50,552 bases of DNA, from the sequence record KX828710; one strand, 5' to 3'. The notes under the pieces are model-generated. The model was not told the DNA's origin and did no database searches. It worked only from the letters and a program-made list of their open reading frames with translations. Source of the stretch: Shigella phage SH6. Of this stretch, positions 33,189 through 50,192 are shown in pieces. Within the stretch, counting starts at the first letter, position 1; each line of letters begins with the position of its first letter. The position numbers and the translations under genes are program-made.

Positions 33189-33193
33189 TTTTC

Positions 33194-34966: not shown

Positions 34967-34979
34967 CTTGCAATGGTCA

Positions 34980-35003
34980 ATAAAAAACCGCCCGAAGGCG
35001 GTT
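34980..35003 (-). terminator. rho-independent terminator after primase gene (minus strand)
   Basis: ACCGCC CGAA GGCGGT hairpin preceded on plus strand by A-run. Confidence 0.55.
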
Positions 35004-35937: not shown

Positions 35938-35949
35938 TTCCAGATCTCC

Positions 35950-35990
35950 AAAATAAAAAACGCGTAGAAGGATGTTAACCCGCTACGCGT
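35950..35990 (-). terminator. terminator-like hairpin after Cro-like gene (minus strand)
   Basis: ACGCGTAG...CTACGCGT inverted repeat with A-run on plus strand. Confidence 0.45.
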
Positions 35991-35998
35991 CGTTTGTT

Positions 35999-36451
35999 TT
36001 AACTAAAAATGCTATTGGTCGTTCCGATATCTTCCTTCTTCACGACGCGCATAAATTTCTTGTTCTTGCATCGCTTCTCAAGGCACTTGCCGTTACCGTC
36101 AAACTTCAGGTCGAATCGCAACCATGCGGCGCGAAATCCTTTGCACCCCTGTCGGCGGTAAGCACGATGCGCAGCTTCAGCACCTTGCCATGAAATCATA
36201 TTGCGTTCTTTCCAGCCCTGCACCGTCTGATTGCTAACCTTCAGAGCCTTTGCGCAGGCCGCCGGGCCGCCGTAATATTCGATAAGGGCATCAAGTCGCG
36301 CTCGCAGTCCGGCGCGCGTTTCTTCTTTATGAATATAGAAGCCGCAGCGCTGTCGTGGCTTTTTGTCTTTACCGCGTCGTGTTCCGTTGTTACCATTGAT
36401 GTGACGTTTATCGATTTCACCAGTTGACTCCGCGATACGTTGAATACTCAT
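35999..36451 (-). CDS. Cro/YdaS-like HTH DNA-binding protein
   Basis: ACAKALKVSNQTVQGWKERNMISWQGAEAAHRA..LRFD matches YdaS/Cro-type HTH; divergent from helicase gene. Confidence 0.55.
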   Translation of the reverse strand: MSIQRIAESTGEIDKRHINGNNGTRRGKDKKPRQRCGFYIHKEETRAGLRARLDALIEYYGGPAACAKALKVSNQTVQGWKERNMISWQGAEAAHRAYRRQGCKGFRAAWLRFDLKFDGNGKCLEKRCKNKKFMRVVKKEDIGTTNSIFS

Positions 36452-36464
36452 CTTGATTCTCCTA

Positions 36465-36507
36465 TAGCACTTTTTGCTAAAAACGTTTACTGTATGCCGT
36501 GTATTAT
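36465..36507 (+). promoter_or_regulatory. intergenic cassette upstream of helicase gene
   Basis: TAGCACTTTTTGCTAAAAAC; TATTAT at +22 in hairpin CGTTTAC/GTAAACG. Confidence 0.5.
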
Positions 36508-36516
36508 AGCGTAAAC
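36484..36516. promoter_or_regulatory. divergent overlapping -10 elements in hairpin between Cro-like gene and helicase gene
   Basis: Inverted repeat CGTTTAC..GTAAACG with central TATTATA: TATTAT on plus, TATAAT on minus. Confidence 0.45.
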
Positions 36517-36544
36517 GTTACAACGATTCAAAGGATTAATAGAC

Positions 36545-38563
36545 GTGACAATGAACATTAAAAAGCAGATTGCATTACTTGGCGAGGACTACATAAAGCG
36601 AACTCAGGAGCGATTTACTGTTGGTGAGGTTATTCCTTATCCGTACCAGGTTGTTGCTTATGCTGAGATCGCGAAACGCCTATCAAATTACGAGCATCCA
36701 TTCTTTGTTAAAGCGTCGGTGTCTGCGGGTAAGACCATCATTTTTGCTATGGTTGCAAAGCAGTGTCAGAAAATGGGCTTAAAAATGCTTGTGCTGGCCC
36801 GTCAGGGTGAGATTGTCGATCAGGATAGCGAAGAGATCGACAACTTCGGCGTTACTAACTCAATATTCTCAGCCTCATTAGGTATTAAGTCCTGCTATTT
36901 TCCGATCGTGGTAGGCTCCGAGGGTACGGTTGCAAATGGCCTCGACAATGAGCTTGCTGATTTCGTCCCGCATGTAATTGGGATCGACGAATGTCACCAG
37001 GTGGATTGGGAAGACCTTGCGCAAGCCATTGAGGGCAAGGAAACAATGGAACAAATGAGGGGCGAGAAGGGAAAAATCATCATGGATGGAGATATTCCCA
37101 TGATTGGTAATGATGGAAAACCTTTGTTTGGGACTAAGCGCAGTCAGTACACGATCGTAATCATGGAAATGATGCGGCGCTGTAAAAAGGTTCACGGTCA
37201 CGATCTCAGAATATTTGGTATGACTGGATCTGAATTTCGTGGCGTAGTTCCTATTCTGGTAGAGAATCCGAAAGCATTGGGATTCTGGCGTGAGCGAGTA
37301 ACTGATATCGACACAAACTATCTGATTGAGTTCGGTTCTGTTGTGCCGACAATATTCGGTTCAACAGACGGAGTTCATTACGATCTGGATAAGTTCAAGG
37401 CGTCGAGCGAGGACGGAGTGCAGGACTTTACAGAGAAAGACATGAAGGCTATGGAAGATGAGATCCTTCATGATAAATCTCTTACTCAGCGAATCATGCA
37501 AATGGTTGCCAAAAAGGCTGAAGAGCGTAACGCGGTACTGATTACATGTGCTGGTGTGCGCCACTGCAAAGAGGCAGCGGCAGCACTTCCTCCGGGAAGC
37601 ACCTATGCAATTATTACTGGCGACACAGACAACAAAACGCGCAAGAAGATTCTTGACGATGTAAGGGCCGGAAAAATTAAATACACCTTTCAGGTAATGG
37701 CGCTCACTACTGGCGTTAACGTTCCAAATTGGGATTTCAGTGTCATACTCCGCAAGATAGGGTCGCTCACGCTGTTGATTCAACTCTTGGGTAGGGGTAT
37801 GCGTCTGCTTAAATCCTGGCAGGTTGCTGAGGGAATGGTTAAGCAGGACCATCTGGTATGGGATTTCGCAGGTACGATGGATGAGTTGGGTCAGCTTTAT
37901 TTCGATCCGATACTTGAGCAGGCGCAATTCCAAAAGCGTTTCGAAAACGGCAAAGATCCGAAAACATGTCCGAAATGCGGTTGCGTAAATAGCTTCTATG
38001 CTCGACGATGCGTTAATGTCATTGATGGTGAGCGTTGCGATCATTTCTGGACTTCTCAGATTTGTGAGGACCAGGTTGACGAGCGCACCGGAAAAATCCT
38101 TGTTAAAGGATGCGGCGCAGAGAATGACGTTGTGGCCCGAGTCTGTCGTTGCTGTGATGTTTCGCTTGTCGATCCTAACCTGAAGTTATCCGGTAAGGCG
38201 TACACTAAGAATGACTGGTATGAAGTAAAGAATTTTGAGGTTACGCTAACCAAAAACCAGAAAGGCATAATATACAAATACACTCTTATTAACGATGATG
38301 GTGATGAGTTCAAGGCGTATGAAAAATTCTTCCCCGAGTCTGACTCTAAGATTTGCGGTACGCTATGGAAAACTAAAGGTGTATTGCCACACGTATCAGA
38401 TCCTAAAATGCGCCGATACTTTATCGGAATGAAGAGCGCCATCAAGATTTTGCAATACTCACATCATATTGCTCACCCGGTGCGCGTAACTCATCGTCGC
38501 AACCAGAAGAAAGAAGATATTATCTCACGAAAAGACTTTGGTATGGAGGATATCCCGGAATGA
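36545..38563 (+). CDS. ATP-dependent DNA helicase (DEAD/DEAH-box superfamily 2) with C-terminal zinc ribbons
   Basis: Walker A SAGKTIIF, DECH box, CPKCGC..C..C and CGAEN..CRCC clusters. Confidence 0.75.
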   Translation: MTMNIKKQIALLGEDYIKRTQERFTVGEVIPYPYQVVAYAEIAKRLSNYEHPFFVKASVSAGKTIIFAMVAKQCQKMGLKMLVLARQGEIVDQDSEEIDNFGVTNSIFSASLGIKSCYFPIVVGSEGTVANGLDNELADFVPHVIGIDECHQVDWEDLAQAIEGKETMEQMRGEKGKIIMDGDIPMIGNDGKPLFGTKRSQYTIVIMEMMRRCKKVHGHDLRIFGMTGSEFRGVVPILVENPKALGFWRERVTDIDTNYLIEFGSVVPTIFGSTDGVHYDLDKFKASSEDGVQDFTEKDMKAMEDEILHDKSLTQRIMQMVAKKAEERNAVLITCAGVRHCKEAAAALPPGSTYAIITGDTDNKTRKKILDDVRAGKIKYTFQVMALTTGVNVPNWDFSVILRKIGSLTLLIQLLGRGMRLLKSWQVAEGMVKQDHLVWDFAGTMDELGQLYFDPILEQAQFQKRFENGKDPKTCPKCGCVNSFYARRCVNVIDGERCDHFWTSQICEDQVDERTGKILVKGCGAENDVVARVCRCCDVSLVDPNLKLSGKAYTKNDWYEVKNFEVTLTKNQKGIIYKYTLINDDGDEFKAYEKFFPESDSKICGTLWKTKGVLPHVSDPKMRRYFIGMKSAIKILQYSHHIAHPVRVTHRRNQKKEDIISRKDFGMEDIPE

Positions 38564-38976
38564 TTACAGACAAAGGTGATTATTTAGAATTTTACGAGAG
38601 AGATCCGAGCGACACTCGAAAGGAGGACGCTCATCAGGTGGATTGTGTATCTTGGCTGAAATACAATTTTCCTCACCTTCTATTTTGGCACACCGTCAAT
38701 GAGGGTGAAAAAACAATCACATCGGCGCTCAGGGATGAGCAGTCCGGATTACTTAAAGGTGTGTCAGACTTCGTTATCCTGATTGGTATTAACTCACGCT
38801 ACCCGTTCGCAGCTATCGAACTCAAGCGGGTTAATAAGTCAGGCAAAGGAAAGGCGTCACCAGTCAGTGATAAGCAGAAGGAGTTTCTCCGAAAGGTCCG
38901 AGAACGTGGCGGCTTCCCTGCTGTCGCATACGGATTCGAACAGTTCAAAGTCGCAATTTACGAATTGATGAAATAG
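38560..38976 (+). CDS. VRR-NUC domain nuclease
   Basis: VSDFVILI..AAIELKR..S..Q pattern of VRR-NUC (PD-(D/E)xK). Confidence 0.65.
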   Translation: MITDKGDYLEFYERDPSDTRKEDAHQVDCVSWLKYNFPHLLFWHTVNEGEKTITSALRDEQSGLLKGVSDFVILIGINSRYPFAAIELKRVNKSGKGKASPVSDKQKEFLRKVRERGGFPAVAYGFEQFKVAIYELMK

Positions 38977-39016
38977 CACTTTTTGTTAAAACTGCCGGAA
39001 TGGAATCTGGCATTAT
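38974..39016 (+). promoter_or_regulatory. intergenic cassette upstream of dam
   Basis: TAGCACTTTTTGTTAAAAC; TGgCATTAT at +22; near-identical inverted copy at 48640..48711. Confidence 0.5.
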
Positions 39017-39043
39017 TACCTCACCGAAACGAGAGGACTAAAG

Positions 39044-39757
39044 ATGAAAGACTTTAATGATATTGAAACCATCGACTTTGCAGAGACTGGGTGCTCATTC
39101 ACTCGCGAAGCAATAGCATCAGGCGGTTATTATCAGGCGTTAAAAACGCCAACATGCAAAGAGATTTCAGGTCGTCGATATAAGGGTACAAACACACCTG
39201 ACGCAGTTCGTGATTTATGGTCAACTCCACGAGAGGTTATTGCATACCTTGAGGGTCGGTACGGAAAATACGATCTCGACGCTGCGGCAAGCGAAGAAAA
39301 TAAAGTTTGCGATAAGTTCTACTCCCAAGAAACAAACTGCTTAAAACGTTGGTGGGGTAAGAATAAGCACGTTTGGTTAAACCCTCCTTATAGCCGACCT
39401 GATATATTCGTCAAGAAGGCTATTGAGCAAATGGAGCACAACAACCAGATCGATATACTGTTACCAGCCGATAACTCTACGGCGTGGTTTACTGAGGCGC
39501 GGCAGAACGCAGCTGAAATCATCTGGATTGAAGCGGACTTGACTGAGGATGTTGACGGAAATGAATACGCACGATCCGGTCGTCTGGCCTTCATATCCGG
39601 TGAAACTGGAAAGGCCGTAGATGGCAATAACAAAGGTTCGGTAATTTTTATTATGCGCGAACTTAAAGAAGGTGAGGTGCAACAGACTCACTACATCCCA
39701 ATCACAAGCATTTGCCCTTCGGTGAAAAACAAACGAGCAAAGGTGAGAAAAGTATGA
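39044..39757 (+). CDS. dam: DNA N6-adenine methyltransferase (phage Dam type)
   Basis: DLDAAAS and WLNPPYS motifs. Confidence 0.8.
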   Translation: MKDFNDIETIDFAETGCSFTREAIASGGYYQALKTPTCKEISGRRYKGTNTPDAVRDLWSTPREVIAYLEGRYGKYDLDAAASEENKVCDKFYSQETNCLKRWWGKNKHVWLNPPYSRPDIFVKKAIEQMEHNNQIDILLPADNSTAWFTEARQNAAEIIWIEADLTEDVDGNEYARSGRLAFISGETGKAVDGNNKGSVIFIMRELKEGEVQQTHYIPITSICPSVKNKRAKVRKV

Positions 39758-40005
39758 TGAGCGAAAAAATTGTTCCTGTTAAATTAACTGAGCAAGGTTT
39801 ATGGCTTCTTTATCGCGCTACGTGCTGCGAGATTATGGAGCGAAACGGATTGACTCAGGATGTTATTGGTTGCGATCTGTGGGAGTTCACTAGCTCTCTT
39901 GATATGTCTTTCGAAGAGATAAAGAATGAATACATTGAGAATTGGCCCTCAATCATCCAAAAAGACGTAGAAGAACTTTCTTCTGAGATAATCACACAGC
40001 ACTAA
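39754..40005 (+). CDS. hypothetical protein (83 aa)
   Basis: ATG at residue 15 of track ORF 39712..40005; ATGA overlap with dam. Confidence 0.5.
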   Translation: MMSEKIVPVKLTEQGLWLLYRATCCEIMERNGLTQDVIGCDLWEFTSSLDMSFEEIKNEYIENWPSIIQKDVEELSSEIITQH

Positions 40006-40039
40006 TTGCTAAAACTACCCGGCGAAAGTCGGGTATAGT
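39996..40039 (+). promoter_or_regulatory. intergenic cassette upstream of 40072..40281
   Basis: AGCACTAATTGCTAAAAC; TATAGT at +22 in hairpin. Confidence 0.5.
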
Positions 40040-40071
40040 TATTTCATAGAAACAAAATGAGGAATCAGAAG

Positions 40072-40281
40072 ATGGCACGCATTAACGCAAACTTTTTCAA
40101 TATCGCTCAACAGTCCGCAAAAATGGCTGTTCATATCACTGACAAGAAAGGCGGCAACTTTGATTGGGATATTGCTATGAACTTCCTTAAAATGGCTTAT
40201 TACCTCTGCTCAGTCAAAGATGTTGAATGTTTTATTGAAAGCGTGGAGAAATTAACTAATGCTGATAAAAAAACAAGGTAA
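40072..40281 (+). CDS. hypothetical protein (69 aa)
   Basis: Internal ATG of track ORF 40057..40281 with GAGGAATCAGAAG RBS; cassette upstream. Confidence 0.5.
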   Translation: MARINANFFNIAQQSAKMAVHITDKKGGNFDWDIAMNFLKMAYYLCSVKDVECFIESVEKLTNADKKTR

Positions 40282-40531
40282 GCGCGAGGTTTGGGAGCAC
40301 GCAAAGGAATGCGGCATCTCAGACGATATAGCATTAATTGCTAAATACTTTGATATAAAGGATGTTAGCATTATCTCAAACGGCAAGATTTCATTTATGG
40401 AAGATATGCCGAGAAAAATGCACAGAGTTCCAGCAACTCCATCACTTGAGTTTTATCGTGAAGAAGGAAAGAGAATTGAACGAGAACGAAAGGCAACAAA
40501 AAACAGTAAGTCTTCCTGGCTTAAACATTAA
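40259..40531 (+). CDS. hypothetical protein (90 aa)
   Basis: ORF track; overlaps next frame. Confidence 0.45.
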   Translation: MLIKKQGKREVWEHAKECGISDDIALIAKYFDIKDVSIISNGKISFMEDMPRKMHRVPATPSLEFYREEGKRIERERKATKNSKSSWLKH

Positions 40532-40763
40532 CTCAGATAACTACCAGACCATATGGATCGGAAAGAAGCAGGTTAAGAAAATCCCTTTCTCTGATTGGTT
40601 GCCTCCTGACTTCGTTAACGTGCTTTGCACTATTGGGATCGAGCAAGAGTTGCATATAGGTTATTACTCACCAGGTAGAAACAGTATGATGCTTGAGGTT
40701 GATGGAAAACTGGTTGAGTTTAAATCTTCAGATCTAGGATTCTGGTTAAAGGCTGTGGCATGA
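40362..40763 (+). CDS. hypothetical reading frame (protein-like only from ~40540); possible continuation of 40259..40531 by +1 frameshift or sequencing indel
   Basis: Track ORF; no canonical start codon after 40531 in this frame. Confidence 0.3.
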   Translation: MLALSQTARFHLWKICREKCTEFQQLHHLSFIVKKERELNENERQQKTVSLPGLNINSDNYQTIWIGKKQVKKIPFSDWLPPDFVNVLCTIGIEQELHIGYYSPGRNSMMLEVDGKLVEFKSSDLGFWLKAVA

Positions 40764-40841
40764 TACTTTATTTTGCTGTAGTATTAACACCGCTAATTTC
40801 ATTTTCAGTAATGTATTTCATTATCATGTAAGGATTAAAAT

Positions 40842-41993
40842 ATGTCACAAGCTAAAATCACTACCGAGCAACTTATCGAAGAACGTATGAACGGACTTAC
40901 ACTTCGCGAGATCGCGGAAAAGTACGGTATGCACATTCGCACTGTCGAGGCGCGTCACGCAAAACTTGCAAAAGAAGGCCACTTCCACGGTAACGAGCAT
41001 GTTGCTAAAAACGTGCCGGAAGGCTTCATGGTAAAAGGCACTTCTACGATGATTCGCGGCGATGGGACTGAGGTAGTTCGCTGGGTTAAGACCGATCAGG
41101 ACCGTGAGAAGATTGCGGCAATGATGGAAGCTGCGCGTATTGCATTCTGTGAAGACCTGCCGCGAGCAAAGCCAACCGAGCTACTAACCTCGCAAGGGCT
41201 TACGACAGCGATGGGTAAGCTGGCACTCTATCCGGTATTCGATCTCCATATTGGCGCGCTTGCTCATAAGCATGAATGCGGTGAGAACTATTCCACCGAC
41301 GTAGCGGAAAAAGTGCTTAGCGACTTCTTTAATTACGCGATCGATATTGCGCCGAACGCAGAGAAGGCTGTTCTGTTAATCGGCGGCGACTTCCTTCACT
41401 CTGACGGCCTTGACGCTGTTACCCCGGCAAGTGGTCACGTTCTAGATCAGGATTCACGATATGCGAAATTGGTGCATGTAGCGATTCGTTCGGTGCGTCG
41501 CGCCATCGACAAAATGCTTATGAAACACAAAGAAGTCGAGGTCCAAGTTATCGAAGGGAACCACGATCAGTCTGGGATGATTTGGCTGCGAGCTGCAATG
41601 TCGGCATATTATGAAGACGAGCCGCGAGTATTCGTTGACGTTAGTCCTATGATTCTGCATAAGACTCGTTGGGGAAATACCTTGTTGGGATACACTCACG
41701 GGCACACTATGAAAAAGGCAGACACGCGACTTGCAGCAATGGCGGCAGATTTCCGATCAGACTTCGGCGAGAGCAAGTATGTGTATACTCATAGTGGTCA
41801 CTGGCATCACCAGACAATCACTGAGCACTCGCTTGGTATTGATGAAGTACACGGTCAGTTAGGCGCGAAAGACGCATACGCAGCACGCGGAGGGTGGCGC
41901 TCATATCGCCAGGCGGCTGTAATTGTTTACGATAAGCAGTTTGGGGAAATCGGTCGATTCATCTACCGTCCAGAAATGACAGGATCGCACTAA
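40842..41993 (+). CDS. calcineurin-like metallophosphoesterase (Mre11/SbcD-like motifs) with N-terminal HTH
   Basis: Motifs DLHIG, GGDFLH, GNHD, plus His-rich C-terminus; N-terminal LTLREIAEKYGMHIRTVEARHAKL HTH. Confidence 0.6.
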   Translation: MSQAKITTEQLIEERMNGLTLREIAEKYGMHIRTVEARHAKLAKEGHFHGNEHVAKNVPEGFMVKGTSTMIRGDGTEVVRWVKTDQDREKIAAMMEAARIAFCEDLPRAKPTELLTSQGLTTAMGKLALYPVFDLHIGALAHKHECGENYSTDVAEKVLSDFFNYAIDIAPNAEKAVLLIGGDFLHSDGLDAVTPASGHVLDQDSRYAKLVHVAIRSVRRAIDKMLMKHKEVEVQVIEGNHDQSGMIWLRAAMSAYYEDEPRVFVDVSPMILHKTRWGNTLLGYTHGHTMKKADTRLAAMAADFRSDFGESKYVYTHSGHWHHQTITEHSLGIDEVHGQLGAKDAYAARGGWRSYRQAAVIVYDKQFGEIGRFIYRPEMTGSH

Positions 41994-42027
41994 TTGATAA
42001 AAATGCCCGAAGGGATTCGGGTATAGT
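41985..42027 (+). promoter_or_regulatory. intergenic cassette (variant) upstream of 42057..42233
   Basis: GCACTAATTGATAAAAA variant; TATAGT at +22 in CCCGAA/TTCGGG hairpin. Confidence 0.45.
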
Positions 42028-42056
42028 AACCACATCGAAAACAAAGAGGCTATATC

Positions 42057-42233
42057 ATGAAGCTAGTTAAGTGCATCCGAAATGACTCCAAAACACTTCC
42101 ATTCCGTGTAAATCAGATCTATAGTGTTGGTTATGATTTCGGTGGGGGATTATTTGAGATTTACGACGGGAGAGGTTCAGCAATCCAGACTCCTCTGAAC
42201 GGTAGCTATCTGGAATTTATTGCGATAGATTAA
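42057..42233 (+). CDS. small protein (58 aa), member of KC..F.V..IY..DG domain family
   Basis: Own translation MKLVKCIRNDSKTLPFRVNQIYSVGYDFGGGLFEIYDGRGS...; cassette and AAGAGG RBS upstream. Confidence 0.45.
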   Translation: MKLVKCIRNDSKTLPFRVNQIYSVGYDFGGGLFEIYDGRGSAIQTPLNGSYLEFIAID

Positions 42234-42255
42234 CAATATCATTCATCACCTTACA

Positions 42256-42286
42256 GGCTGGCATGGTTTACATGCTGGCCTTTTTG
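42256..42286 (+). terminator. terminator-like hairpin before lysis cassette
   Basis: Imperfect GGCTGGCATG..CATGCTGGCC hairpin + TTTTT. Confidence 0.4.
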
Positions 42287-42351
42287 CGTTGTATCAAGTA
42301 AATTTGAAGGTTAAAATCGACTCACTTGTTCAAAAAATATATGGTGAGATT

Positions 42352-42567
42352 ATGAAAGAGTTTTTAACGGCTGCCACGTCAAGCACTGGCGGTGCTTCGT
42401 TGGTAGGGGCGGCGACAGGGCAACTTTATATTGCTGGCGCTACATTCATTTGCTTTCTGCTTTTTGGTGCCTGGGGAGCGTACTGGAAGTATCGTGATAG
42501 TAAGGCAATTCAGGAAGCGTTAAACGATGGCGATCTAAATAAGGCGCTTAAGATCAGGGGGAGATAA
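42352..42567 (+). CDS. holin
   Basis: 71 aa with hydrophobic TM segment and charged C-terminus; directly upstream of endolysin; ATG at residue 22 of track ORF. Confidence 0.65.
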
Positions 42568-43055
42568 TGAGTTTAAAAAATAACGTTATAGGCGCATCGA
42601 TCGGGGCCGCTTTGACGTTGACACCTACCCTACTGGAACGAATCGAAGGTATAGAATACGAGGTTTATTACGATATCGCCGGAGTCCCTACCGTATGCAG
42701 CGGAATAACCGGGCCGGACGTAATACCCGGTAAGAAATACACTAAGCGAGAATGCGATGCATTGCTGATAAAACATATCGGCGTCGCTCAGCGATACGTC
42801 GACAAGAAGGTAAAGGTTGACATCCCGGTAACTATGCGAGCATCACTGTATAGCTTCACTTTCAACGTCGGGACTGGCGCGTTCGGATCTTCTACAATGC
42901 TTAAGCTAATAAATCAGAGTAAGCACAAGGAAGCGTGCAATCAGTTATGGCGATGGGTGTACTACTACAACCCAAAAACCAAAAAGCGCGAAGTGTCTAG
43001 AGGACTCAAGAACCGACGCGCTGAAGAATACGCGTATTGCGTTAAGGAATTATGA
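42567..43055 (+). CDS. endolysin (phage lysozyme, GH24-like)
   Basis: N-terminal [22 protein letters not shown] lysozyme signature; 162 aa. Confidence 0.8.
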
Positions 43056-43456
43056 TGAAACTGGAGAAAACGTGCATTGCGATTGCAGTGGCTGTTGGTG
43101 TTATTTCCCTATCAGGTTGCTCGACGGCATCTGCCCTGAGCGGTTTAATCGGATCTAAACCTGAAGTTACAGCGCAAATCGGAGAGGAGAACACAAAGCA
43201 ATTAGCAGGAGTAACCGCAAAATCCGAAGATAAACGAGATGTTAAAGTTGAAAAGTCCAATGTAGGAAAGGTTGACTCTTCCGTGAAGAAGTCAATTGAA
43301 GTGTCAACCATTCAGGCCAACACGGTTAACGCTGAAAGCATCACAGTAACAAAACCGGAAAGCTGGTACGATACTATCGTTGGCTGGACTCTCGTTTTTA
43401 TTGGTCTATTGCTTGTTTGTTTTTCACTTCGTAAGTACGAAAAAAAGGAGGCGTAA
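43052..43456 (+). CDS. unimolecular spanin (T1 gp11-type)
   Basis: Lipoprotein signal with lipobox LSGC and C-terminal TM helix [13 protein letters not shown] in one polypeptide. Confidence 0.7.
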
Positions 43457-43470
43457 GCCTCCTTTCTTTT
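43439..43470. terminator. bidirectional terminator between spanin (+) and leftward gene block (-)
   Basis: AGGAGGC GTAA GCCTCCT hairpin flanked by AAAAAA and TTTCTTTT. Confidence 0.65.
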
Positions 43471-43684
43471 ATGCATCAGCCCACATGTAACTTTCGTTCG
43501 TGAGTTTTGCGTATTCGCGAACTTCAATCTCGCAGGTGTCGCCGTACATCTCAGCGACCTTCTTCTCGTTCGCTACCGCCGTTTCTTCATTCCATCCATC
43601 AGCCTTGTTGTAAAGGGTAGGAATCTCACTGCTAGTGCCGTTAGAGTGGTTGTAAACGCGAACTACTAAAAATTTGTTAGCCAT
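43469..43684 (-). CDS. hypothetical protein (71 aa)
   Basis: Internal ATG of track ORF 43469..43810 with GAAGGAAAGC RBS and cassette upstream. Confidence 0.5.
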   Translation of the reverse strand: MANKFLVVRVYNHSNGTSSEIPTLYNKADGWNEETAVANEKKVAEMYGDTCEIEVREYAKLTNESYMWADA

Positions 43685-43721
43685 GATGCTTTCCTTCAGG
43701 TCGTTTCGTTTCGATGAAACA

Positions 43722-43765
43722 AATATACCCGATACGAGATCGGGTGTTTTAACAAAAAGTGCTAT
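43722..43765 (-). promoter_or_regulatory. intergenic cassette (minus orientation) upstream of 43469..43684
   Basis: Minus strand ATAGCACTTTTTGTTAAAAC; TATATT at +22; CATCGAAACGA leader. Confidence 0.5.
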
Positions 43766-43873
43766 TTGTATCTTTTGACATGGAGAAGCAACTCCCCCTC
43801 CTGGTCGCAAAGATTATGCTCACTGTCGCCGCTGGCCCTCATTGAAGTGAGCAGCAGGCTCAACAATCCTTGT

Positions 43874-44281
43874 TCAAATTCTTCTTTCGTAAGCTGGAGT
43901 CTTGCGCACAATTCGACGTTCCGATCTATCAACGTTTCTACGTTCGCCAAACAAGTCTTCATCACTCATTTCTCCAATGTGCATCATTTCCCACGTATAT
44001 CGATTGTTGTAGCCATCAATACACATCAGCTTCATCATTACCGGGCGCTTGATCTTTCCCTTGCACCAGTAAAACCCATCCCTGCAATCAAGATAACCCT
44101 CAGTTACACAGCGTGAGCAAAACTCCTTAGATAGCGCGCTTGTAAATTCACGGCGAGTCATTCCGGCGGCCTTAGCAAATCGCTCACTTTCCTTGTGGGC
44201 GTATATAAATTTCGCTATGTGCTGTCGCGTGTATTTGTCGTAACCTTCGCAGAACCTGAAAAGATCTAAAAGAAGAAGCAT
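43874..44281 (-). CDS. hypothetical Cys-rich protein (135 aa)
   Basis: ORF track; CSRCVTEGYLDCRDGFYWC cluster; coupled to upstream gene. Confidence 0.5.
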   Translation of the reverse strand: MLLLLDLFRFCEGYDKYTRQHIAKFIYAHKESERFAKAAGMTRREFTSALSKEFCSRCVTEGYLDCRDGFYWCKGKIKRPVMMKLMCIDGYNNRYTWEMMHIGEMSDEDLFGERRNVDRSERRIVRKTPAYERRI

Positions 44282-44285
44282 ATCA

Positions 44286-45857
44286 TTAACCCATCAGTCG
44301 AGGATTGATGAAAACAATATCATCAATACGGCAAGTGTAGTTCATCTCTTCGAGCGTGATCAGCAGGCTGTCGATTCGCTCAGATACTTTCTGCTGACCG
44401 TTGAACGGCGTAACGTTCCGGCACTTTGCAACAATACTATGAATAGGTGCGCGGCCTTTGTTCTTCTTCGCGATCTCAGTGATAACATCAATCAGCTTAC
44501 GAGATTCAGCCTCATCACCAGCATACCCGGCAGCGCTGGCAGACGACAGATAAGTCCTGGAAAGCTCATTGAAAATCATGATTGCTTCCTGCATTGTTTC
44601 AAGGTCAATCTCACGGTTGGAACGGTTCGGTGATTCACCCTCCCAATTCTTGATCGTGTGGAGAACTGAAGCAATACGCAAGGCATGCTTATCGAACTTG
44701 CCTAGATGACCGCGTAGCATTGAGTGAGAGTATTTTCCCCCGGCTGCGAAATCCGGCTCCATCGCCTGACGCGCAAGGTTTAATTCACGCATAGCATTGC
44801 GGCTTACAGAGAGAACAATGTTATCCTCCTTCATAATGTTGTGCACGAGTCGATAATATTTACTCACCAACCCTCGATCGACTTCCTTATACAGCGCATC
44901 ACCATTTTCATCGCAAAGAATACGAGTACCTAAAAGCGGTTCCTCGCGAACCAGGAGGAAACGCTCAGATACACCGATGCCGCGCTGGCCTGCGTCCATG
45001 ATACCCTTGATTGTTTCATCCTGCGCAATGACGCAGATCGAACCGACTGGGCAAAGAGATAAGTTGTTGTCCTGATTTGAACGCGCAACCTCCATATGGT
45101 TTTTATCCCACGCCTTGAGGATAAGCTCGCTGTTTGATTTCTTATCAGAGCCGCCATAAGTCAGGCCAAGCAATGTATTTATTGCCGTTGCCTCATCAGA
45201 GATTACTGAGAAATGACCTTGAACAGCGGCTACTTTCGCAAGACCTTCCGGTGTAGGATCTGATACCGCAAAAACAATATCAGCCATCTTCTTGATCTTC
45301 TCTTCAAGTTTTTCCTTGTCCTCGTAGAGCGCCGCCGTCGTGTTACCCTTCGGATCGTTTTTGATTTCCTTCTCGACCTGACGTAGCTGACTGGTTAAAC
45401 GGATGCGCTCCTTTTTTCGCTCTTCATTCAGCCGCTGAATCTCCGCACGCATAGGTGTAATCGCCGCTGAGTTAATCGCCGATTTACCTGTTGAAGGTGG
45501 CTGGCTAATCACCATATAAAGAGCGGTCGGCTGCTCTTCTCCGTGATATTGCACCCAAAACTTCCCGAGCATCGCGGCTGAGATGCACCCAATGAAATGA
45601 GCGTACGCAGACGAAACAGGGAACTGTACAGACTCAGCCTTTGCTTTTGCATATTCGAATACCAGGTTATCGCCACCTAACGAAATCAGCGGGAACTTAT
45701 CGTTTCCACTGTTGATATCGATCGGATCTTGCCAAAACGAAACTGAATCCCCATAGCTGTTTTCACGAATTGCGATCGCCACCGGATTAACTCCAGTGCT
45801 ATTTGCGATCTCAATAATCTGTTGGTAATTCAGTTTTGGCTTAATATTAAACATCAC
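44286..45857 (-). CDS. P-loop NTPase, putative replication-associated protein
   Basis: Walker A-like QPPSTGKSA; 523 aa; cassette upstream. Confidence 0.5.
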   Translation of the reverse strand: MMFNIKPKLNYQQIIEIANSTGVNPVAIAIRENSYGDSVSFWQDPIDINSGNDKFPLISLGGDNLVFEYAKAKAESVQFPVSSAYAHFIGCISAAMLGKFWVQYHGEEQPTALYMVISQPPSTGKSAINSAAITPMRAEIQRLNEERKKERIRLTSQLRQVEKEIKNDPKGNTTAALYEDKEKLEEKIKKMADIVFAVSDPTPEGLAKVAAVQGHFSVISDEATAINTLLGLTYGGSDKKSNSELILKAWDKNHMEVARSNQDNNLSLCPVGSICVIAQDETIKGIMDAGQRGIGVSERFLLVREEPLLGTRILCDENGDALYKEVDRGLVSKYYRLVHNIMKEDNIVLSVSRNAMRELNLARQAMEPDFAAGGKYSHSMLRGHLGKFDKHALRIASVLHTIKNWEGESPNRSNREIDLETMQEAIMIFNELSRTYLSSASAAGYAGDEAESRKLIDVITEIAKKNKGRAPIHSIVAKCRNVTPFNGQQKVSERIDSLLITLEEMNYTCRIDDIVFINPRLMG

Positions 45858-45884
45858 AATAAACTCCTTAGTTGACGGTGTGAA

Positions 45885-45927
45885 TGATACACCGCCAATG
45901 GTACACGCGTTTTACAAAAAGTGCTAT
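45885..45927 (-). promoter_or_regulatory. intergenic cassette (minus) upstream of 44286..45857
   Basis: Minus strand ATAGCACTTTTTGTAAAAC; TATCAT at +22; AAGGAG RBS. Confidence 0.5.
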
Positions 45928-45930
45928 TGG

Positions 45931-46356
45931 TTATAAGTATTTGGCCTCAAAGGTTGTGCCGTCTGCGATACTAAAACCCACCTCTTCGCGGAATAAGGTC
46001 CAGCGGCATCCGTCCTCATCAAAGATGTAACCAGCTACGCCGCCAAGAGCGCGACCGCTTTCTACCTGGTAACGCTTTCCAACCTTGAATGATTTTTTCA
46101 TCGGGTTGCGATGGTCAAGTCCGGTGCACTTGAGCGTCTTTGTTTTCAACTCGGTGAACTTCGCGAAGAAGATTTCATCAGATCCGTGAATATGTAATTC
46201 ATCATGCTTTTCAAGTTTTAAATACTTCCCGCACTTTAACTTTACTTCGCGAGTACCATCATAGCGCTCACGACCTTTATACAGATTGTTTACTTCGAAT
46301 CCTGTGATTTTGTCTGCGGAAGTGCATTTCAGTTTGATTGATTTCATTGCATTCAC
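45931..46356 (-). CDS. hypothetical protein with two KC..F.V..Y repeats
   Basis: IKLKCTSADKITGFEVNNLY and KTLKCTGL..FKVGKRYQV repeats. Confidence 0.5.
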   Translation of the reverse strand: MNAMKSIKLKCTSADKITGFEVNNLYKGRERYDGTREVKLKCGKYLKLEKHDELHIHGSDEIFFAKFTELKTKTLKCTGLDHRNPMKKSFKVGKRYQVESGRALGGVAGYIFDEDGCRWTLFREEVGFSIADGTTFEAKYL

Positions 46357-46383
46357 TCCTGATTGGTTATCTTGAATAAGGCC

Positions 46384-46427
46384 ACTTTATCAAATGACCT
46401 TACGGCAATATTAACAAATCGTGCTAT
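46384..46427 (-). promoter_or_regulatory. intergenic cassette (minus) upstream of 45931..46356
   Basis: Minus strand ATAGCACGATTTGTTAA; TGaTAAAGT at +22; CCAATCAGGAG RBS. Confidence 0.5.
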
Positions 46428-46637
46428 TTACCAGGGAATGTAATCGTCGTCATTATCATCAATATCATCGCCGGGCATCTCAAAGTTAGGATCGTACTCG
46501 CTTTCAGTATCCATATCCATATCACCAAGAGCCTCATCAAGTGTTATTTCTTTATATGCGACCTTGATGCACCACTCGGCACTAAGCCCGGCATCAAGTG
46601 CTGCAAAATAACGAGTCCAGAAATTATCTTGTTCCAT
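46428..46637 (-). CDS. small highly acidic protein with SSB-tail-like C-terminus
   Basis: 69 aa, C-terminus ..DDIDDNDDDYIPW resembling SSB tip DDDIPF. Confidence 0.5.
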   Translation of the reverse strand: MEQDNFWTRYFAALDAGLSAEWCIKVAYKEITLDEALGDMDMDTESEYDPNFEMPGDDIDDNDDDYIPW

Positions 46638-46640
46638 TAA

Positions 46641-46865
46641 TTAGCTCCACGAATTAATGTAAATCGAGTTAGCCTCAAGCGTTGCACGAACATCCGCATC
46701 TGTTGCATTTATCAGTAGAGAGCCTGGCACGCTTCCGATAACACTATTTCCGTTACGTGTCTTAGTTACCGTCATTGAAATAAAGCCTGAAGACTTATCC
46801 ATCTTGATAACGACGCGGCCTTTCGCGTTCAGGTGCTTGATGATATTCTCAACTTTAATGCTCAT
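46641..46865 (-). CDS. hypothetical protein (74 aa)
   Basis: Internal ATG of track ORF 46641..46910; cassette upstream. Confidence 0.5.
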   Translation of the reverse strand: MSIKVENIIKHLNAKGRVVIKMDKSSGFISMTVTKTRNGNSVIGSVPGSLLINATDADVRATLEANSIYINSWS

Positions 46866-46899
46866 TTTTAATTCCTTTATTTCGTTTGGTGTGGGAGTA

Positions 46900-46946
46900 A
46901 TATATATCACTCCCGATCGTATGTCTTTAGCAATTCGTGCTATTAG
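46900..46946 (-). promoter_or_regulatory. intergenic cassette (minus) upstream of 46641..46865
   Basis: Minus strand TAGCACGAATTGCTAAAG; A/T-rich -10-like TATATA at about +22. Confidence 0.45.
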
Positions 46947-47086
46947 TACTCAGAAATTACCTTGCACTCCTTGATAGTGCCGCCGAGAACTACCTTTTGC
47001 ATCATTGCTTTTTGATGGCTATCGTAAACACGAACATTTTTTACACTGTTAAATTTACCCGTATAGAAAGTGTGAATATAAATCAT
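46943..47086 (-). CDS. possible small protein (47 aa)
   Basis: Own translation MIYIHTFYTGKFNSVKNVRVYDSHQKAMMQKVVLGGTIKECKVISEY; ATGA overlap with upstream gene. Confidence 0.3.
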   Translation of the reverse strand: MIYIHTFYTGKFNSVKNVRVYDSHQKAMMQKVVLGGTIKECKVISEY

Positions 47087-47403
47087 TTTTTGCCGTCCCA
47101 AGTTTGATACGCCGTCACCAGGTTAATACTATGATTGAACTCATCAATGCTAAGAGATCCGATTCGAACCAGTTCTTTGTTATGCTTGATATCAATCATC
47201 CGGCTATATGGATGGCCTGGCAAATACTTGAACAGTCGCTTGCTGTCGGCAATATCTGCGTTGATTCCGTAGAATCGACCCACCGCCGCCTTAACGCGCT
47301 CCATGATGTTTTTTTCGTGGATTGCTGCCGCGTTATTCAGTGCCACAACCGTGCTTCCGTTAATCTTCGGTGACTTCGTTGTGATTTTGTAAGTGTGGTT
47401 CAT
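47083..47403 (-). CDS. hypothetical protein (106 aa)
   Basis: ORF track; GGAGGA RBS. Confidence 0.5.
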   Translation of the reverse strand: MNHTYKITTKSPKINGSTVVALNNAAAIHEKNIMERVKAAVGRFYGINADIADSKRLFKYLPGHPYSRMIDIKHNKELVRIGSLSIDEFNHSINLVTAYQTWDGKK

Positions 47404-47418
47404 TATTCCTCCAACCAG

Positions 47419-47619
47419 TCAGGATAGCTTTCTCGCTTCATCAATGATAACAGGCTCGAGACGCTCAAGTCGAACGCGGAATGTGTTCATAAATCCCTCG
47501 TTGTTCTTAAGTAGTTCGAATGCGTCTGTAGCTTCAATGGCGCTACCACCCATATAGGCAATTACTTTTTTCTGAGTCTTACGTGAGATCGCCACTACGC
47601 GGTAAATATTATCACTCAT
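47419..47619 (-). CDS. hypothetical protein (66 aa)
   Basis: Internal ATG of track ORF 47419..47637 with AGAGG RBS. Confidence 0.5.
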   Translation of the reverse strand: MSDNIYRVVAISRKTQKKVIAYMGGSAIEATDAFELLKNNEGFMNTFRVRLERLEPVIIDEARKLS

Positions 47620-47983
47620 ACAATGCCTCTTTAACACGATCCGCTACACATGAGTTAACGGTGATTGAATAGTTAGCCACGCCCCATAATGCAATATTGC
47701 CAAGCTCGGTACGCATTGATGGATTGTTTAGCTGAATGATTGTCTCGCCAGTATCTTTATCGACGAAGCGAGACACGCCAGAATGGTCAACCACGCGCGT
47801 TACGCGGTTAACACACTCCATTGCATCACTTACACCGTAATAAGCGCTTAGGGCGGCTCTCACAGCCTTCTCTTGCTTGTTGTAAATCTTGCGCGCGATG
47901 CTCTCGATCGCAACGTGCTCTTTCTCGTCAGTCTGAATTGCAGTGCTGGCTGAGAAGTCCAGGTCAGTGAACTGATTAAGCAT
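47612..47983 (-). CDS. hypothetical protein (123 aa)
   Basis: Internal ATG of track ORF 47612..48007 with GAGGG RBS. Confidence 0.5.
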   Translation of the reverse strand: MLNQFTDLDFSASTAIQTDEKEHVAIESIARKIYNKQEKAVRAALSAYYGVSDAMECVNRVTRVVDHSGVSRFVDKDTGETIIQLNNPSMRTELGNIALWGVANYSITVNSCVADRVKEALYE

Positions 47984-47987
47984 ATAA

Positions 47988-48218
47988 TTACCCTCTGAAA
48001 CTATCAATAGTGTCGTTGATGTATTTCACTTGCGCCTCTACGTCAGACGTGGCGATGTACTGGAATGTATCGTAATCCTCCCGCAAGTCCACAAGCTCGA
48101 CCTTAGTATGATGCTCTTTAAGCCCTCCCATGTGACCGTAATGTGTGCGGTAGACAATGAATCCCTCGTCATTGGCGCGCTGGATTGCTTTCTTTAATCC
48201 AGGGTGTTTGATTGCCAT
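47988..48218 (-). CDS. hypothetical protein (76 aa)
   Basis: ORF track; cassette and CAGGAG RBS upstream. Confidence 0.5.
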   Translation of the reverse strand: MAIKHPGLKKAIQRANDEGFIVYRTHYGHMGGLKEHHTKVELVDLREDYDTFQYIATSDVEAQVKYINDTIDSFRG

Positions 48219-48250
48219 ATGGTGATTCTCCTGATTGGTTGATGTTGTTT

Positions 48251-48296
48251 ACTATACCCCGATTCCCTTCGGGGCGTTTAGCAATTCGTGCTATTA
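48251..48296 (-). promoter_or_regulatory. intergenic cassette (minus) upstream of 47988..48218
   Basis: Minus strand TAGCACGAATTGCTAAAC; TATAGT at +22 in CCCCGAAGGG hairpin. Confidence 0.5.
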
Positions 48297-48629
48297 ATCG
48301 ATATCGAACTCAGCGGCATATGCTTTCTTGAAGCCAGCTTCACGCATGGTGCGCTTGCTGATTTTTCGCGGGAATTTGTAATGACTGTTAGGTTTAACCC
48401 ACCAGAAGCAGGCAGTCTCGCGAACAATTTCATATTTACCGTAACGGGTGAAGATGTCACGTTCATCGTCAGGCTGGTTAACACAGGTAAGGAATTTAGC
48501 TGCTTTGTCTTCAGTTTTGATTTCTTCCCATACGAAAGAATCCATACCGTTAACCTTGCAAGCTACCATGATGTACTCAACGCCGTTTTCGATTTTGATG
48601 ATTTCGTTACCGCGATTTTCGTATTTCAT
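48294..48629 (-). CDS. hypothetical protein (111 aa)
   Basis: Internal ATG of track ORF 48294..48701 with CAGGAG RBS; cassette upstream. Confidence 0.5.
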   Translation of the reverse strand: MKYENRGNEIIKIENGVEYIMVACKVNGMDSFVWEEIKTEDKAAKFLTCVNQPDDERDIFTRYGKYEIVRETACFWWVKPNSHYKFPRKISKRTMREAGFKKAYAAEFDID

Positions 48630-48667
48630 TTCCCTACTCCTGATGTGTATCTCGTTTCGATGAAGTA

Positions 48668-48711
48668 ATAATGCCAGATTCCATTCCGGCAGTTTTAACA
48701 AAAAGTGCTAT
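48668..48711 (-). promoter_or_regulatory. intergenic cassette (minus) upstream of 48294..48629
   Basis: ~60 nt near-identical to plus-strand cassette at 38974..39035. Confidence 0.5.
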
Positions 48712-48897
48712 TTAGAATTTTACTTCCTCAACAAGCTCAACCTTTTTGCACCCCAGGCGATAGGAGTCGCCGAACAACAATAACCCCATAAATTCATCTT
48801 TGGTTATTGACTCCTTACCAACTGTTCTAAGCTCTCCGTTGTGAACTACAGTATCGCCGATCTTGATTTCTGATTTATGCACTAATTTCGTTTTCAT
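48712..48897 (-). CDS. hypothetical protein (61 aa)
   Basis: ORF track; coupled to upstream gene. Confidence 0.45.
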   Translation of the reverse strand: MKTKLVHKSEIKIGDTVVHNGELRTVGKESITKDEFMGLLLFGDSYRLGCKKVELVEEVKF

Positions 48898-48912
48898 TTG
48901 CTAGCCCGTTAA

Positions 48913-49098
48913 TTAAAAGAATGCTACATAGTTTGCAATGCCTTTGGCGTCGTCGTTAGGCATTGCTTTGACAGCAAGGTCGTAACCCGCTTCTACCTTT
49001 TGCTTTGCTGATTCTTCGTTGTACCCACAAATAACCAGAATTTTAACTACGTTTTCTTTGTTCAGAACTTTAAGGTCTTTAGTGATGCGACGTGCCAT
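48913..49098 (-). CDS. hypothetical protein (61 aa)
   Basis: Internal ATG of track ORF 48913..49113; cassette upstream. Confidence 0.45.
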   Translation of the reverse strand: MARRITKDLKVLNKENVVKILVICGYNEESAKQKVEAGYDLAVKAMPNDDAKGIANYVAFF

Positions 49099-49131
49099 TT
49101 TGTTTTTCCTCAATCTCGTTTCGATGAGGTA

Positions 49132-49175
49132 ATTATGCCAAATCGCACCGATCTGGTTTTAACAAAAAGTGCTAT
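49132..49175 (-). promoter_or_regulatory. intergenic cassette (minus) upstream of 48913..49098
   Basis: Minus strand ATAGCACTTTTTGTTAAAAC; CATAAT at +22; CATCGAAACGAGA leader. Confidence 0.5.
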
Positions 49176-49863
49176 TTGCGATCGCTTTGAAAAATCCACG
49201 CGGCGACAGGGATCGTATCAGCTTCGTTTTGGCAGACTTGCCGCCTAACTTGCTGTGCTGCGCAGAGTACCCGTCAGGCAGGTTTACAGGTTTTCTTTCC
49301 GGCATAACGAAGTCGTCAGAGGTCCACAGACAAGTTTTCTTAGGGTAAGCATCGCGCGGCGCAATATACATCGGGAACCAGGGATGAGCGTCATTCTCCG
49401 GAAGATAGCCGCCATACTCCCAGGGATTGAAGGAGTGATTTGGTTTTCTCCATGCAGACGACAGGACGCTCACCGGATTCTCAATGATGTAAGTCACGCC
49501 CAGTGCGTCGCCAATGTTCGCAGCAATCCTTGCGGTGGCAACAGCCTTCTCCTGGAATAACGGATCGCGCTCACGCTTACTTGCAAAGTGACTAGCACCA
49601 CTAACAGCCAGGTCAGTGCATGGAGGAAAGGCCATGATGAAATCCGGCTTGCCATACACACCAGCGATAGCATCACGTTCGAACTTCTCATCAATGAAGA
49701 CGTTCACATACTCAATGTTCGGATGCTCTACCCTGGCGTTATACTTCGCATAATCTCCGTGATCGGCTCCGTCAAAGTTGAAGCACATCACCTTATGACC
49801 TTGCCTTGCCAGTTCATGACCAGCAAGACCGGAACCGTCGAATAGCGACCAAATTAATTTCAT
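49159..49863 (-). CDS. compact DNA (cytosine-5)-methyltransferase-like protein
   Basis: Motif I LFDGSG, motif IV FPPCTD, motif VI IIENPV in canonical order; only 234 aa. Confidence 0.5.
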   Translation of the reverse strand: MKLIWSLFDGSGLAGHELARQGHKVMCFNFDGADHGDYAKYNARVEHPNIEYVNVFIDEKFERDAIAGVYGKPDFIMAFPPCTDLAVSGASHFASKRERDPLFQEKAVATARIAANIGDALGVTYIIENPVSVLSSAWRKPNHSFNPWEYGGYLPENDAHPWFPMYIAPRDAYPKKTCLWTSDDFVMPERKPVNLPDGYSAQHSKLGGKSAKTKLIRSLSPRGFFKAIANSTFC

Positions 49864-49897
49864 CGTGACTCCCTCTTCTGATTGGTTTATGGCCCGA

Positions 49898-49941
49898 ACT
49901 ATACCCTGACAACTTGGTCAAGTCGTTAGCAAAAAATGCTA
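49898..49941 (-). promoter_or_regulatory. intergenic cassette (minus) upstream of C5-MTase-like gene
   Basis: Minus strand TAGCATTTTTTGCTAACGAC (perfect palindrome); TATAGT ~23 nt downstream. Confidence 0.5.
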
Positions 49942-50192
49942 TTCCAATAATTGCTCATTATTCCATCAATAATGGAATAGGTGGAATAATTTTGATTGCG
50001 ATTGATTGCAAATGATGAAACGTGATTATTGCATGATGTGCAACGGTTGGTTGATTTGTTGCTGAGAATGCAATGATTGCGAGAGGGGGGATCTAGTGTT
50101 ACCCGGTTCGCCTGGTGGTCATCTCCATTCTTAGCAAAACGTGCTATTCGTCTATGCGGTAGTTGTAATTGTCGTAATAGTTGTATACCATC

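Follow-up and report, generated by a model that had tools for sequence, protein, structure and literature searches.

Do two near-identical DNA segments that face each other across several kilobases of a phage genome form a device for inverting the region between them, or do they have another origin? The question is raised by Shigella phage SH6 (sequence record KX828710), whose 50,552 nucleotides (nt) were analyzed in full and are referred to here as the window. An initial annotation had proposed that the pair could invert the segment from 39 to 48.7 kb or, alternatively, mark a recent cassette transposition. Our analysis indicates that the pair very probably represents two copies of a T1-like promoter/terminator cassette that were made alike by past recombination, and not an inversion device. 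The window is that of a Tunavirus (T1-like, Drexlerviridae), with CLB_P3 as its best match (93.7% identical over 11.5 kb) and Sfin, Shfl1, T1 and others next; phage ADB-2 (JX912252/NC_019725) encodes a 98% identical Dam at another coordinate and is neither the same sequence as the window nor a permutation of it.

Anatomy of the inverted pair

A repeat search of the window placed the two arms of the pair at 38971-39034 on the plus strand and at 48650-48713 on the minus strand, each 64 nt long, 97% complementary (62 of 64 positions) and 9615 nt apart. Near-identical inverted cassettes about 9.7 kb apart, as initially annotated, are thus confirmed, with coordinates that had been right to within a few bases; the identical run, earlier quoted as 48 nt, is real but measures exactly 49 nt when both strands are read, 38971-39019 being the reverse complement of 48665-48713 (AAATAGCACTTTTTGTTAAAACTGCCGGAATGGAATCTGGCATTATTAC). 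Beyond this run there are two C/T differences, after which the leaders diverge, reading ...GAGAGGACTAAAGATG toward dam and ...GAGATACACATCAGGAGTAGGGAAATG toward a leftward open reading frame (ORF) here called gX. The similarity of the arms is far above chance.

Sequence reading, the repeat search, a box scan and folding resolve arm 1, the cassette 5' of dam, into a box at 38973-38992 (ATAGCACTTTTTGTTAAAAC), a hairpin TGCCGGA-ATGGAA-TCTGGCA at 38993-39012, a -10 hexamer CATTAT at 39011-39016 and the leader CCTCACCGAAACGAGAGGAC, all on the plus strand, with the dam ATG at 39044. Arm 2, the cassette 5' of gX, was delimited by sequence reading, the repeat search and comparison with relatives, and has the same parts on the minus strand, namely a box at 48711-48692, a hairpin at 48691-48672, a -10 hexamer CATTAT at 48673-48668 and the leader TTCATCGAAACGAGATACACATCAGGAG, with the gX ATG at 48629. 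Both boxes read AAATAGCACTTTTTGTTAAAA, and the distance from box to ATG is 71 nt in arm 1 and 82 nt in arm 2. The gene behind arm 1, dam (39044..39757, plus strand), encodes a DNA adenine methyltransferase and is the first of a rightward block, while gX (48294..48629, minus strand) is a 111-aa ORF assigned to phrog_29431 and without Pfam match. At their 5' ends the arms touch the preceding genes: the stop codon of the VRR-NUC gene (38560-38976) falls within the arm 1 box, and that of orf61 overlaps or abuts the arm 2 box. The arms are inverted because they belong to two gene blocks of opposite direction, the dam-lysis block (rightward) and an early block (leftward), which meet near 43.5 kb.

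A genome-wide family of boxes and cassettes

The initial annotation noticed the pair but overlooked that it belongs to a genome-wide promoter family. The first 20 nt of each arm constitute a box found 28 times in the window (ATAGCACNWWTTGNTAAA, at most two mismatches), against 0.24 occurrences expected from shuffles. On the plus strand the boxes start at 820, 1556, 2577, 3138, 3864, 5411, 5931, 7226, 9057, 25716, 34922, 36464, 38973, 39996, 40328 and 41984, and on the minus strand at 15782, 19547, 36015, 43765, 45927, 46427, 46943, 48294, 48711, 49175, 49942 and 50147, so that the family spans 820..50147 on both strands. Because the copies are dispersed and each is linked to one gene, a CRISPR-like or tandem array was rejected.

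Alignment of the copies shows that about 20 of the 28 are canonical cassettes with a constant order of parts: a 20-bp box (ATAGCACnnnTTGyTAAAAC), a variable spacer of exactly 18 bp, a hexamer resembling a -10, a leader (for example CATCGAAACGA), a ribosome-binding site (RBS) and a start codon. The hexamer is TATAGT in most copies and CATTAT or CATAAT in the subfamily of the arms, often with TGn just before it, and its offset from the box start is 38 nt for 20 of the 28 window copies and, among 186 unique cassettes of distant Drexlerviridae, for 130. All 20 canonical boxes have the orientation of the downstream ORF and lie 70-84 nt 5' of its start codon. Within the box there is little or no variation at A1, G4, C5, A6, C7, G13, A16 and A17, and A18 ranks just below them; the variable positions are 8-10, of which position 10 is restricted to A and T, and position 14, where C and T are about equally frequent. 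At the -35 position the cassettes have TAAAAC/AAAACN and no -35 consensus. An Rfam scan matched no family anywhere in the window.

Within this family the arms are the most alike pair. Their variable spacers are identical at 18 of 18 positions, whereas 190 cassette pairs share 6.2 on average (standard deviation 2.8) and the runner-up shares 15 of 18.

Spacer hairpins

A hairpin forms within or around the spacer in each of the 20 canonical cassettes (mean z = -3.2 versus shuffles), and, the pair of arms excepted, the hairpin sequences are unrelated between cassettes. Folding is more stable for the sense than for the antisense RNA (-12.8 vs -10.0 kcal/mol, Wilcoxon p = 0.0012, 20 canonical cassettes), owing to G.U pairs on the sense strand. 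In nine orthologues of the dam hairpin, 93.7% of pairs are kept, with two compensatory pairs that both come from a single sequence (L052). The cassette hairpins of T1, including that of dam, are annotated as rho-independent terminators in the RefSeq record NC_005833, and a simple terminator scan flags the arm 2 hairpin as terminator-like. Judging from these sequences, the hairpin probably ends or attenuates the upstream transcript, after which the cassette would restart transcription. RNase III sites were rejected since the stems are merely 7-10 bp long.

Probable copying of the dam cassette and shuffling of gene modules

Relatives were examined as 53 Dam-anchored loci from IMG/VR together with fetched GenBank genomes. 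The 64-mer was matched in 43 phage records by megablast, a search that needs an exact word of 28 nt and therefore undercounts second copies (one place reported in CLB_P3, two present); copy counts were taken by direct reading of the fetched loci. The dam cassette spacer, TGCCGGAATGGAATCTGG-CATTAT, is kept through Tunavirus (T1, IME18, Sfin-3, Shfl1, JMPW1 and others). A second copy of the dam-type spacer, 5' of gX, is found only in the window, CLB_P3, EF3-1 and SA12KD, and the exact 28-mer of the shared spacer has no match in IMG/VR, where the allele is rare.

The second copy lies in a shuffling zone between the cytosine-methylase gene (49159-49863) and orf76 (47988-48218). With P for a cassette, the order is methylase-P-orf66-orf61-P(dam-type)-gX-P-... 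in the window, CLB_P3 and EF3-1, methylase-P(dam-type)-gX in SA12KD, methylase-P(TCGATCGGTGTGATTTGG/CATAAT)-gX in Shfl1, Eco_BIFF and UP30, and methylase-P-orf66-orf61-P-orf76, without gX, in Sfin-3 and DELF2. Thus, gX follows orf61 in the first three phages, whereas in SA12KD, Shfl1, Eco_BIFF and UP30 it comes directly after the methylase gene; Sfin-3, DELF2, IME18 and JMPW1 lack it. This distribution marks gX as a mobile module. The two-gene module of orf66 (DUF7421) and orf61 (48712..49113, minus strand), between the methylase-proximal cassette and arm 2, occurs or is missing as a unit among the relatives. The neighboring cassette at 49113..49177 on the minus strand (box 49175-49156, spacer CAGATCGGTGCGATTTGG, -10 CATAAT) represents the allele that stands before gX, as its predicted promoter, in Shfl1, Eco_BIFF and UP30, and the cassette 3' of gX, at 48230..48294 on the same strand, has a G-type box (ATAGCACGAATTGCTAAACG). 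At the point of the gX deletion, Sfin-3 and DELF2 carry a hybrid T-type/ACG box, ATAGCACTTTTTGyTAAACG, indicating a crossover inside the box. Boundaries of insertions and deletions between the window and UP30 likewise coincide with cassettes (43465/43760, 47983/48274 and 48713/49113).

The leader ...CGAAACGAGATACACATCAGG always accompanies gX, with either spacer. Arm 2 is consequently a chimera in which box, spacer and -10 of the dam promoter are joined, within TACYTCA, to the gX leader. We propose that arm 1 would promote dam rightward and arm 2 gX leftward, and that the gX promoter received copies of the dam promoter's spacer and -10 in an ancestor shared by the window phage, CLB_P3, EF3-1 and SA12KD. 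The copying would have proceeded by homologous recombination or short-patch conversion between flanking homologies, provided by the box and by the leader TACCTCAYCGAAACGAGA, and it was probably performed by the phage RecE/Erf system. As the initial annotation supposed, the phage does encode such a system, comprising a RecE-like exonuclease (30930-31994), an Erf-like annealing protein (32036-32716) and SSB (32763-33188), all on the plus strand and identified from ORFs and the annotation of the collinear UP30. The dam allele is common across the Tunavirus examined and the gX allele is confined to four phages, which would make copying from dam to gX, before these four diverged, the parsimonious direction. 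The same homologies in box and leader mark the points where small gene modules have entered, left or changed place among relatives, the inverted pair being a by-product of cassette shuffling. The recent cassette transposition considered in the initial annotation is essentially right when taken as homologous exchange or gene conversion of a dam-type spacer onto the gX promoter, given that four phages have the allele and the others lack it.

Another cassette subfamily, at 3864-3954 and 5931-6021 on the plus strand and 46360-46427 on the minus strand, is 78% similar over 68-91 nt, with the hairpin AAGGCCATTTGATATAGTGGCCTT and the leader ACCAATCAG. One pair of this subfamily is likewise inverted, 42 kb apart, and the subfamily implies that cassette copying occurred more than once.

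Inversion and other explanations for the pair

Could the pair nonetheless be a working substrate for Erf/RecE inversion of the 9.6-kb segment, giving two genome isomers? The inverted homology (49 nt perfect, 64 nt at 97%) and the encoded RecE-like exonuclease, Erf and SSB would be suited to it, and inversion would plausibly be viable: with both promoters directed into the segment, every gene would keep a promoter and the blocks would stay convergent. However, the four pair-bearing genomes share gene order and orientation with relatives that lack the pair (T1, Shfl1, UP30), and the identity of the arms stops where the leaders diverge, as a promoter swap predicts. Over its entire length, and on one strand, the window is collinear with UP30; CLB_P3 aligns to it as a single piece with 100% coverage, and for EF3-1 and SA12KD the alignment (95-96%) stays on one strand through both junctions. 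The loci of CLB_P3, EF3-1 and SA12KD have the dam copy on the plus strand, the gX copy on the minus strand and the usual gene order. Wherever the methylase gene was found in the Dam-anchored loci it lies on the minus strand downstream of dam, and in none of the 53 is the methylase block on the other strand. No invertase or integrase appeared in the annotation of the collinear UP30 or in Pfam scans of small ORFs of the window. Comparison of gene order in related phages, suggested in the initial annotation as a check, thus gave one orientation throughout and no inverted arrangement; the proposed inversion of the 39-48.7 kb segment is unsupported, and we consider it very unlikely.

Convergent selection, through a hairpin-binding factor or co-regulation of dam and gX, could also be invoked for the identical spacers, in that both give the same 7-bp hairpin with the loop ATGGAA and this loop is kept in dam orthologues. 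Convergence would not be expected to yield nucleotide identity at 18 of 18 spacer and 6 of 6 -10 positions, including a G.T wobble and the loop bases; moreover, gX works with an unrelated spacer in other phages, and the remaining cassettes all have unrelated hairpin sequences, which renders this explanation highly improbable. Repeats carry a general risk of misleading assemblers, and nothing beyond that suggests that assembly or annotation created the pair; its presence in the same setting in the independently sequenced CLB_P3 (two records), EF3-1 and SA12KD makes an artefact almost inconceivable. Several points weigh against our explanation by two recombined promoter cassettes. Activity of the cassettes as promoters for the genes behind them is predicted, as is that of the hairpins as terminators; a generic sigma-70 -35/-10 scan returned 26 sites in the window versus 24.9 in shuffles and did not flag the cassettes, a puzzle also noted for phage TLS, whose 2024 re-annotation did not label the corresponding repeats promoters (PMC11447400). 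The direction from dam to gX rests on parsimony over a limited set of genomes, and the pair may be more widespread than four genomes, as megablast misses diverged second copies. Finally, rare inversion isomers might occur in the population, consensus assemblies displaying a single orientation only.

Candidate readers of the box

The box closely resembles the marbox, the site of the Escherichia coli regulators MarA, SoxS and Rob. Sites published for these proteins include AYNGCACNNWNNRYYAAAYN (PMC2064960), the consensus GCAHWWWWTGYYAAA (PMC6900184) and a consensus from chromatin immunoprecipitation sequencing, gcactaattgctaaa (PMC5684230). The consensus AYNGCACNNWNNRYYAAAYN/AYNGCACNNWNNRYYAAAY has 23 matches in the window with at most one mismatch (1.0 expected), GCAHWWWWTGYYAAA has 27 (1.3 expected), 13 of them exact, and the boxes that start at 7226 and 39996 contain exact copies of gcactaattgctaaa. 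Each arm agrees with GCACTTTTTGTTAAA in 15 of 15 positions and with the marbox 19-mer in 18 of 19, with A for Y at position 19, as in micF.

The geometry agrees as well. In class II marbox promoters a forward box overlaps the -35 position, is centered near -41 and is accompanied by no recognizable -35 hexamer (PMC10268841, PMC12052159). In E. coli K-12 micF, the prototype of this class, we measured a marbox ACAGCACTGAATGTCAAAAC, an 18-bp gap and a -10 TAGAAT (box 334-353, -10 372-377 and transcription start site 385 in the coordinates of L059), the annotated 5' end of the RNA being 8 nt past the last base of the hexamer, with 7 nt intervening. The phage cassettes have the 20+18+6 layout of micF and, with an assumed transcription start site, a box center at about -41; the box at 39996 (ACAGCACTAATTGCTAAAAC) and the micF marbox share 17 of 20 positions. 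The arms accordingly combine the consensus fit, the forward orientation over -35 and a sigma-70 -10 without -35 hexamer that characterize this promoter class. A literature search found no paper linking marboxes with T1-like phages.

These matches lead us to suggest, tentatively and at somewhat less than an even chance, that the T1-like repeats are consensus marboxes in class II geometry, at which host MarA, SoxS or Rob would replace the -35 element at most early and middle promoters. A tblastn search with MarA, SoxS and the N-terminal part of Rob gave only E>2, and Pfam scans of 49 small ORFs gave no HTH_18/AraC match; with no detectable AraC-type protein of the phage, any factor of this type would be that of the host. 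Most plausibly this would be Rob, which is favored because it is constitutively abundant (PMC5684230). Alternatively, the box may be the operator of a phage protein, a MotA-like activator or stoperator-like shut-off factor, with host factors uninvolved and the pair still composed of promoter cassettes. The candidate is a 150-aa protein with a single helix-turn-helix (HTH) of the Cro type (35999..36451, minus strand; phrog_2856, weak P22_Cro HTH), which PHROGs classes as a transcriptional regulator and whose gene is core, being present in 51 of 53 loci at 52-100% identity. Its gene is preceded by a good canonical sigma-70 promoter, one of only a few (TTGAAT-17-TATAAT, 36531-36503, minus strand), and has, in an autoregulatory-looking arrangement, the reverse complement of the box in its own 5' untranslated region (5'UTR) beside the RBS. 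The box also holds a dyad, TAGCA-N5-TGCTA, although the host marbox consensus has the same pseudo-dyad, so that the dyad does not discriminate between a host and a phage reader. The asymmetric conservation of the box, in which the near-invariant A1, C7, A17 and A18 are not self-complementary and position 14 (C/T) breaks the dyad in half of the copies, speaks against a symmetric dimer site. The orientation of the box relative to the -10 is fixed, and if a phage protein were required at almost all early promoters, early expression would need to start from very few others. A palindromic operator was rejected as the primary reading of the box on account of this asymmetry, which is the pattern specified by the monomeric marbox consensus; a PDB sequence search with the 150-aa protein gave only a marginal Cro match (E=0.83). 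We regard control by the phage regulator as unlikely, though clearly less so than the alternatives weighed above for the pair, and leave what probability remains to other readers of the box.

A near-perfect marbox with the exact spacing of micF offers a concrete and testable account of the TLS-type repeats. Were host MarA, SoxS or Rob indeed the reader, gene expression throughout a phage family would be coupled to the multidrug- and oxidative-stress regulon of the host; TLS itself enters via TolC, which is induced by the same regulators. This would bear on phage-antibiotic interactions and on the programming of transcription in phages without their own polymerase or sigma factor.

Further box copies and associated elements

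The control region at 36451-36545 is divergent, with back-to-back overlapping -10 elements: the helicase cassette (box 36464-36483, -10 TATTAT 36502-36507, plus strand) lies opposite the regulator promoter (36531-36503, minus strand).

A late-type class of promoters was seen at 9007-9076, 23479-23529 and 25658-25735, where a strong GC-rich terminator with a T-run is followed by a TGn-extended -10 (TGCAATATGG, TGTAGAATGG and TGTATAATGG). Two of the three (boxes 9057 and 25716) have a forward marbox-like box just 3' of the -10, in the 5'UTR beside the RBS, a position that fits repression and not activation. If host MarA, SoxS or Rob reads the box, the same protein could also repress late genes and the phage HTH regulator, whose 5'UTRs contain box copies.

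The boxes at 19529-19547 (minus strand) and 34922-34939 (plus strand) oppose late genes and abut the RBSs of the gene starting at 19568 (plus strand) and of the tail-fibre gene starting at 34901 (minus strand). In their own orientation they are followed by a -10-like hexamer and then, within ~30-50 nt, by a bidirectional terminator (e.g. GGGGGCGCAAGCCCCC, 19483-19468). The copy at 19547 is conserved in UP30. These two boxes could produce short antisense or divergent RNAs or serve as roadblocks. The box-like sequence ATAGCATTAATTGCTAAA at 40328-40345 (plus strand) lies within coding sequence (ORFs 40259-40531 and 40362-40763), has no canonical -10 at +38 and is kept in CLB_P3, UP30, EF3-1 and SA12KD; it may be an internal promoter of the overlapping downstream ORF or a relic.

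A second repeated element, ACCAATCAGRRG, is found directly 5' of start codons and resembles an extended RBS leader. It has 18 matches with at most one mismatch, ten of them exact, against 0.78 expected, among them copies at 1619, 3928, 5995, 19550 and 32049 on the plus strand and at 24689, 46367, 48239 and 49886 on the minus strand, and may be a translational enhancer.

Comparison with known systems

Invertible DNA segments are flipped by recombinases of the Gin/Hin/Cin type or by homology-driven flip-flop of inverted repeats. The pair resembles them in that two inverted repeats flank a segment of several kilobases, but the repeats are ordinary promoters that occur 28 times in both directions; no second orientation was found in the window, CLB_P3, EF3-1, SA12KD or the other relatives, and no invertase or other site-specific recombinase in the annotation of the collinear UP30 or the Pfam scans of small ORFs. 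In the middle promoters of T4, a MotA box replaces the -35 element in a process of sigma appropriation. The T1-type cassettes similarly have, at many promoters, a conserved box that stands in for the -35 and keeps a constant spacing to a sigma-70 -10; they differ in that the MotA box has another sequence and position (~-30) and in that the T1 boxes are found at almost all promoters of the early region, not at a middle class only. With class II marbox promoters such as micF the cassettes have in common the forward box over -35, the missing -35 match and the arrangement of 20 + 18 bp + -10, whereas the phage boxes number ~25 copies per 50 kb and are near consensus, host marboxes are degenerate, and binding to the phage boxes is predicted.

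The repeats as such are already in the literature. Re-annotation of TLS in 2024 described 18 intergenic 21-nt repeats with the consensus aaATAGCACnnnTTGnTAAAA, co-oriented with transcription and ~76 nt 5' of start codons, found such repeats also in T1, Rtp and Rogue1, and left their function as an open question, with a stoperator, an enhancer site and an UP element named as possibilities (PMC11447400). The arms share this consensus, the co-orientation, the distance from the start codon and the T/G/A subtypes at nnn, and by consensus, intergenic placement, orientation and start distance they belong to the T1-like 21-nt repeat family. The fixed 18-bp link to a -10, the hairpins, the marbox match and a role in module shuffling are not described for TLS.

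The closest functional parallel is found in T4-type phages, in which PeSLs, promoter and stem-loop cassettes placed between a stop codon and the Shine-Dalgarno sequence (SD)/ATG, occur in ~50 copies per genome, with a stem-loop that lies between -35 and -10 or overlaps the -10 and contains G-T pairs, and mediate modular shuffling by homologous recombination (PMC2839356, PMC4122927). The T1-type cassettes, too, are repeated tens of times in regions of small genes without known function, sit between stop codon and SD/ATG, contain a stem-loop and bound the insertions, deletions and replacements between relatives. In contrast to PeSLs, they belong to siphoviruses of the Drexlerviridae and lack the consensus sigma-70 -35/-10 with AT-rich upstream region, having a marbox-like box in place of a consensus -35; mini-circles and promoter and terminator activity have been shown for PeSLs, whereas promoter and terminator activity of the T1-type cassettes is predicted from sequence. 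The comparison therefore suggests that the T1-type cassettes would work like PeSLs without being members of the T4 family. The inverted pair is itself ordinary; what it reveals is that repeated promoter/terminator cassettes are sites of recombination by which T1-like phages shuffle small genes, as PeSLs are in T4-type phages.

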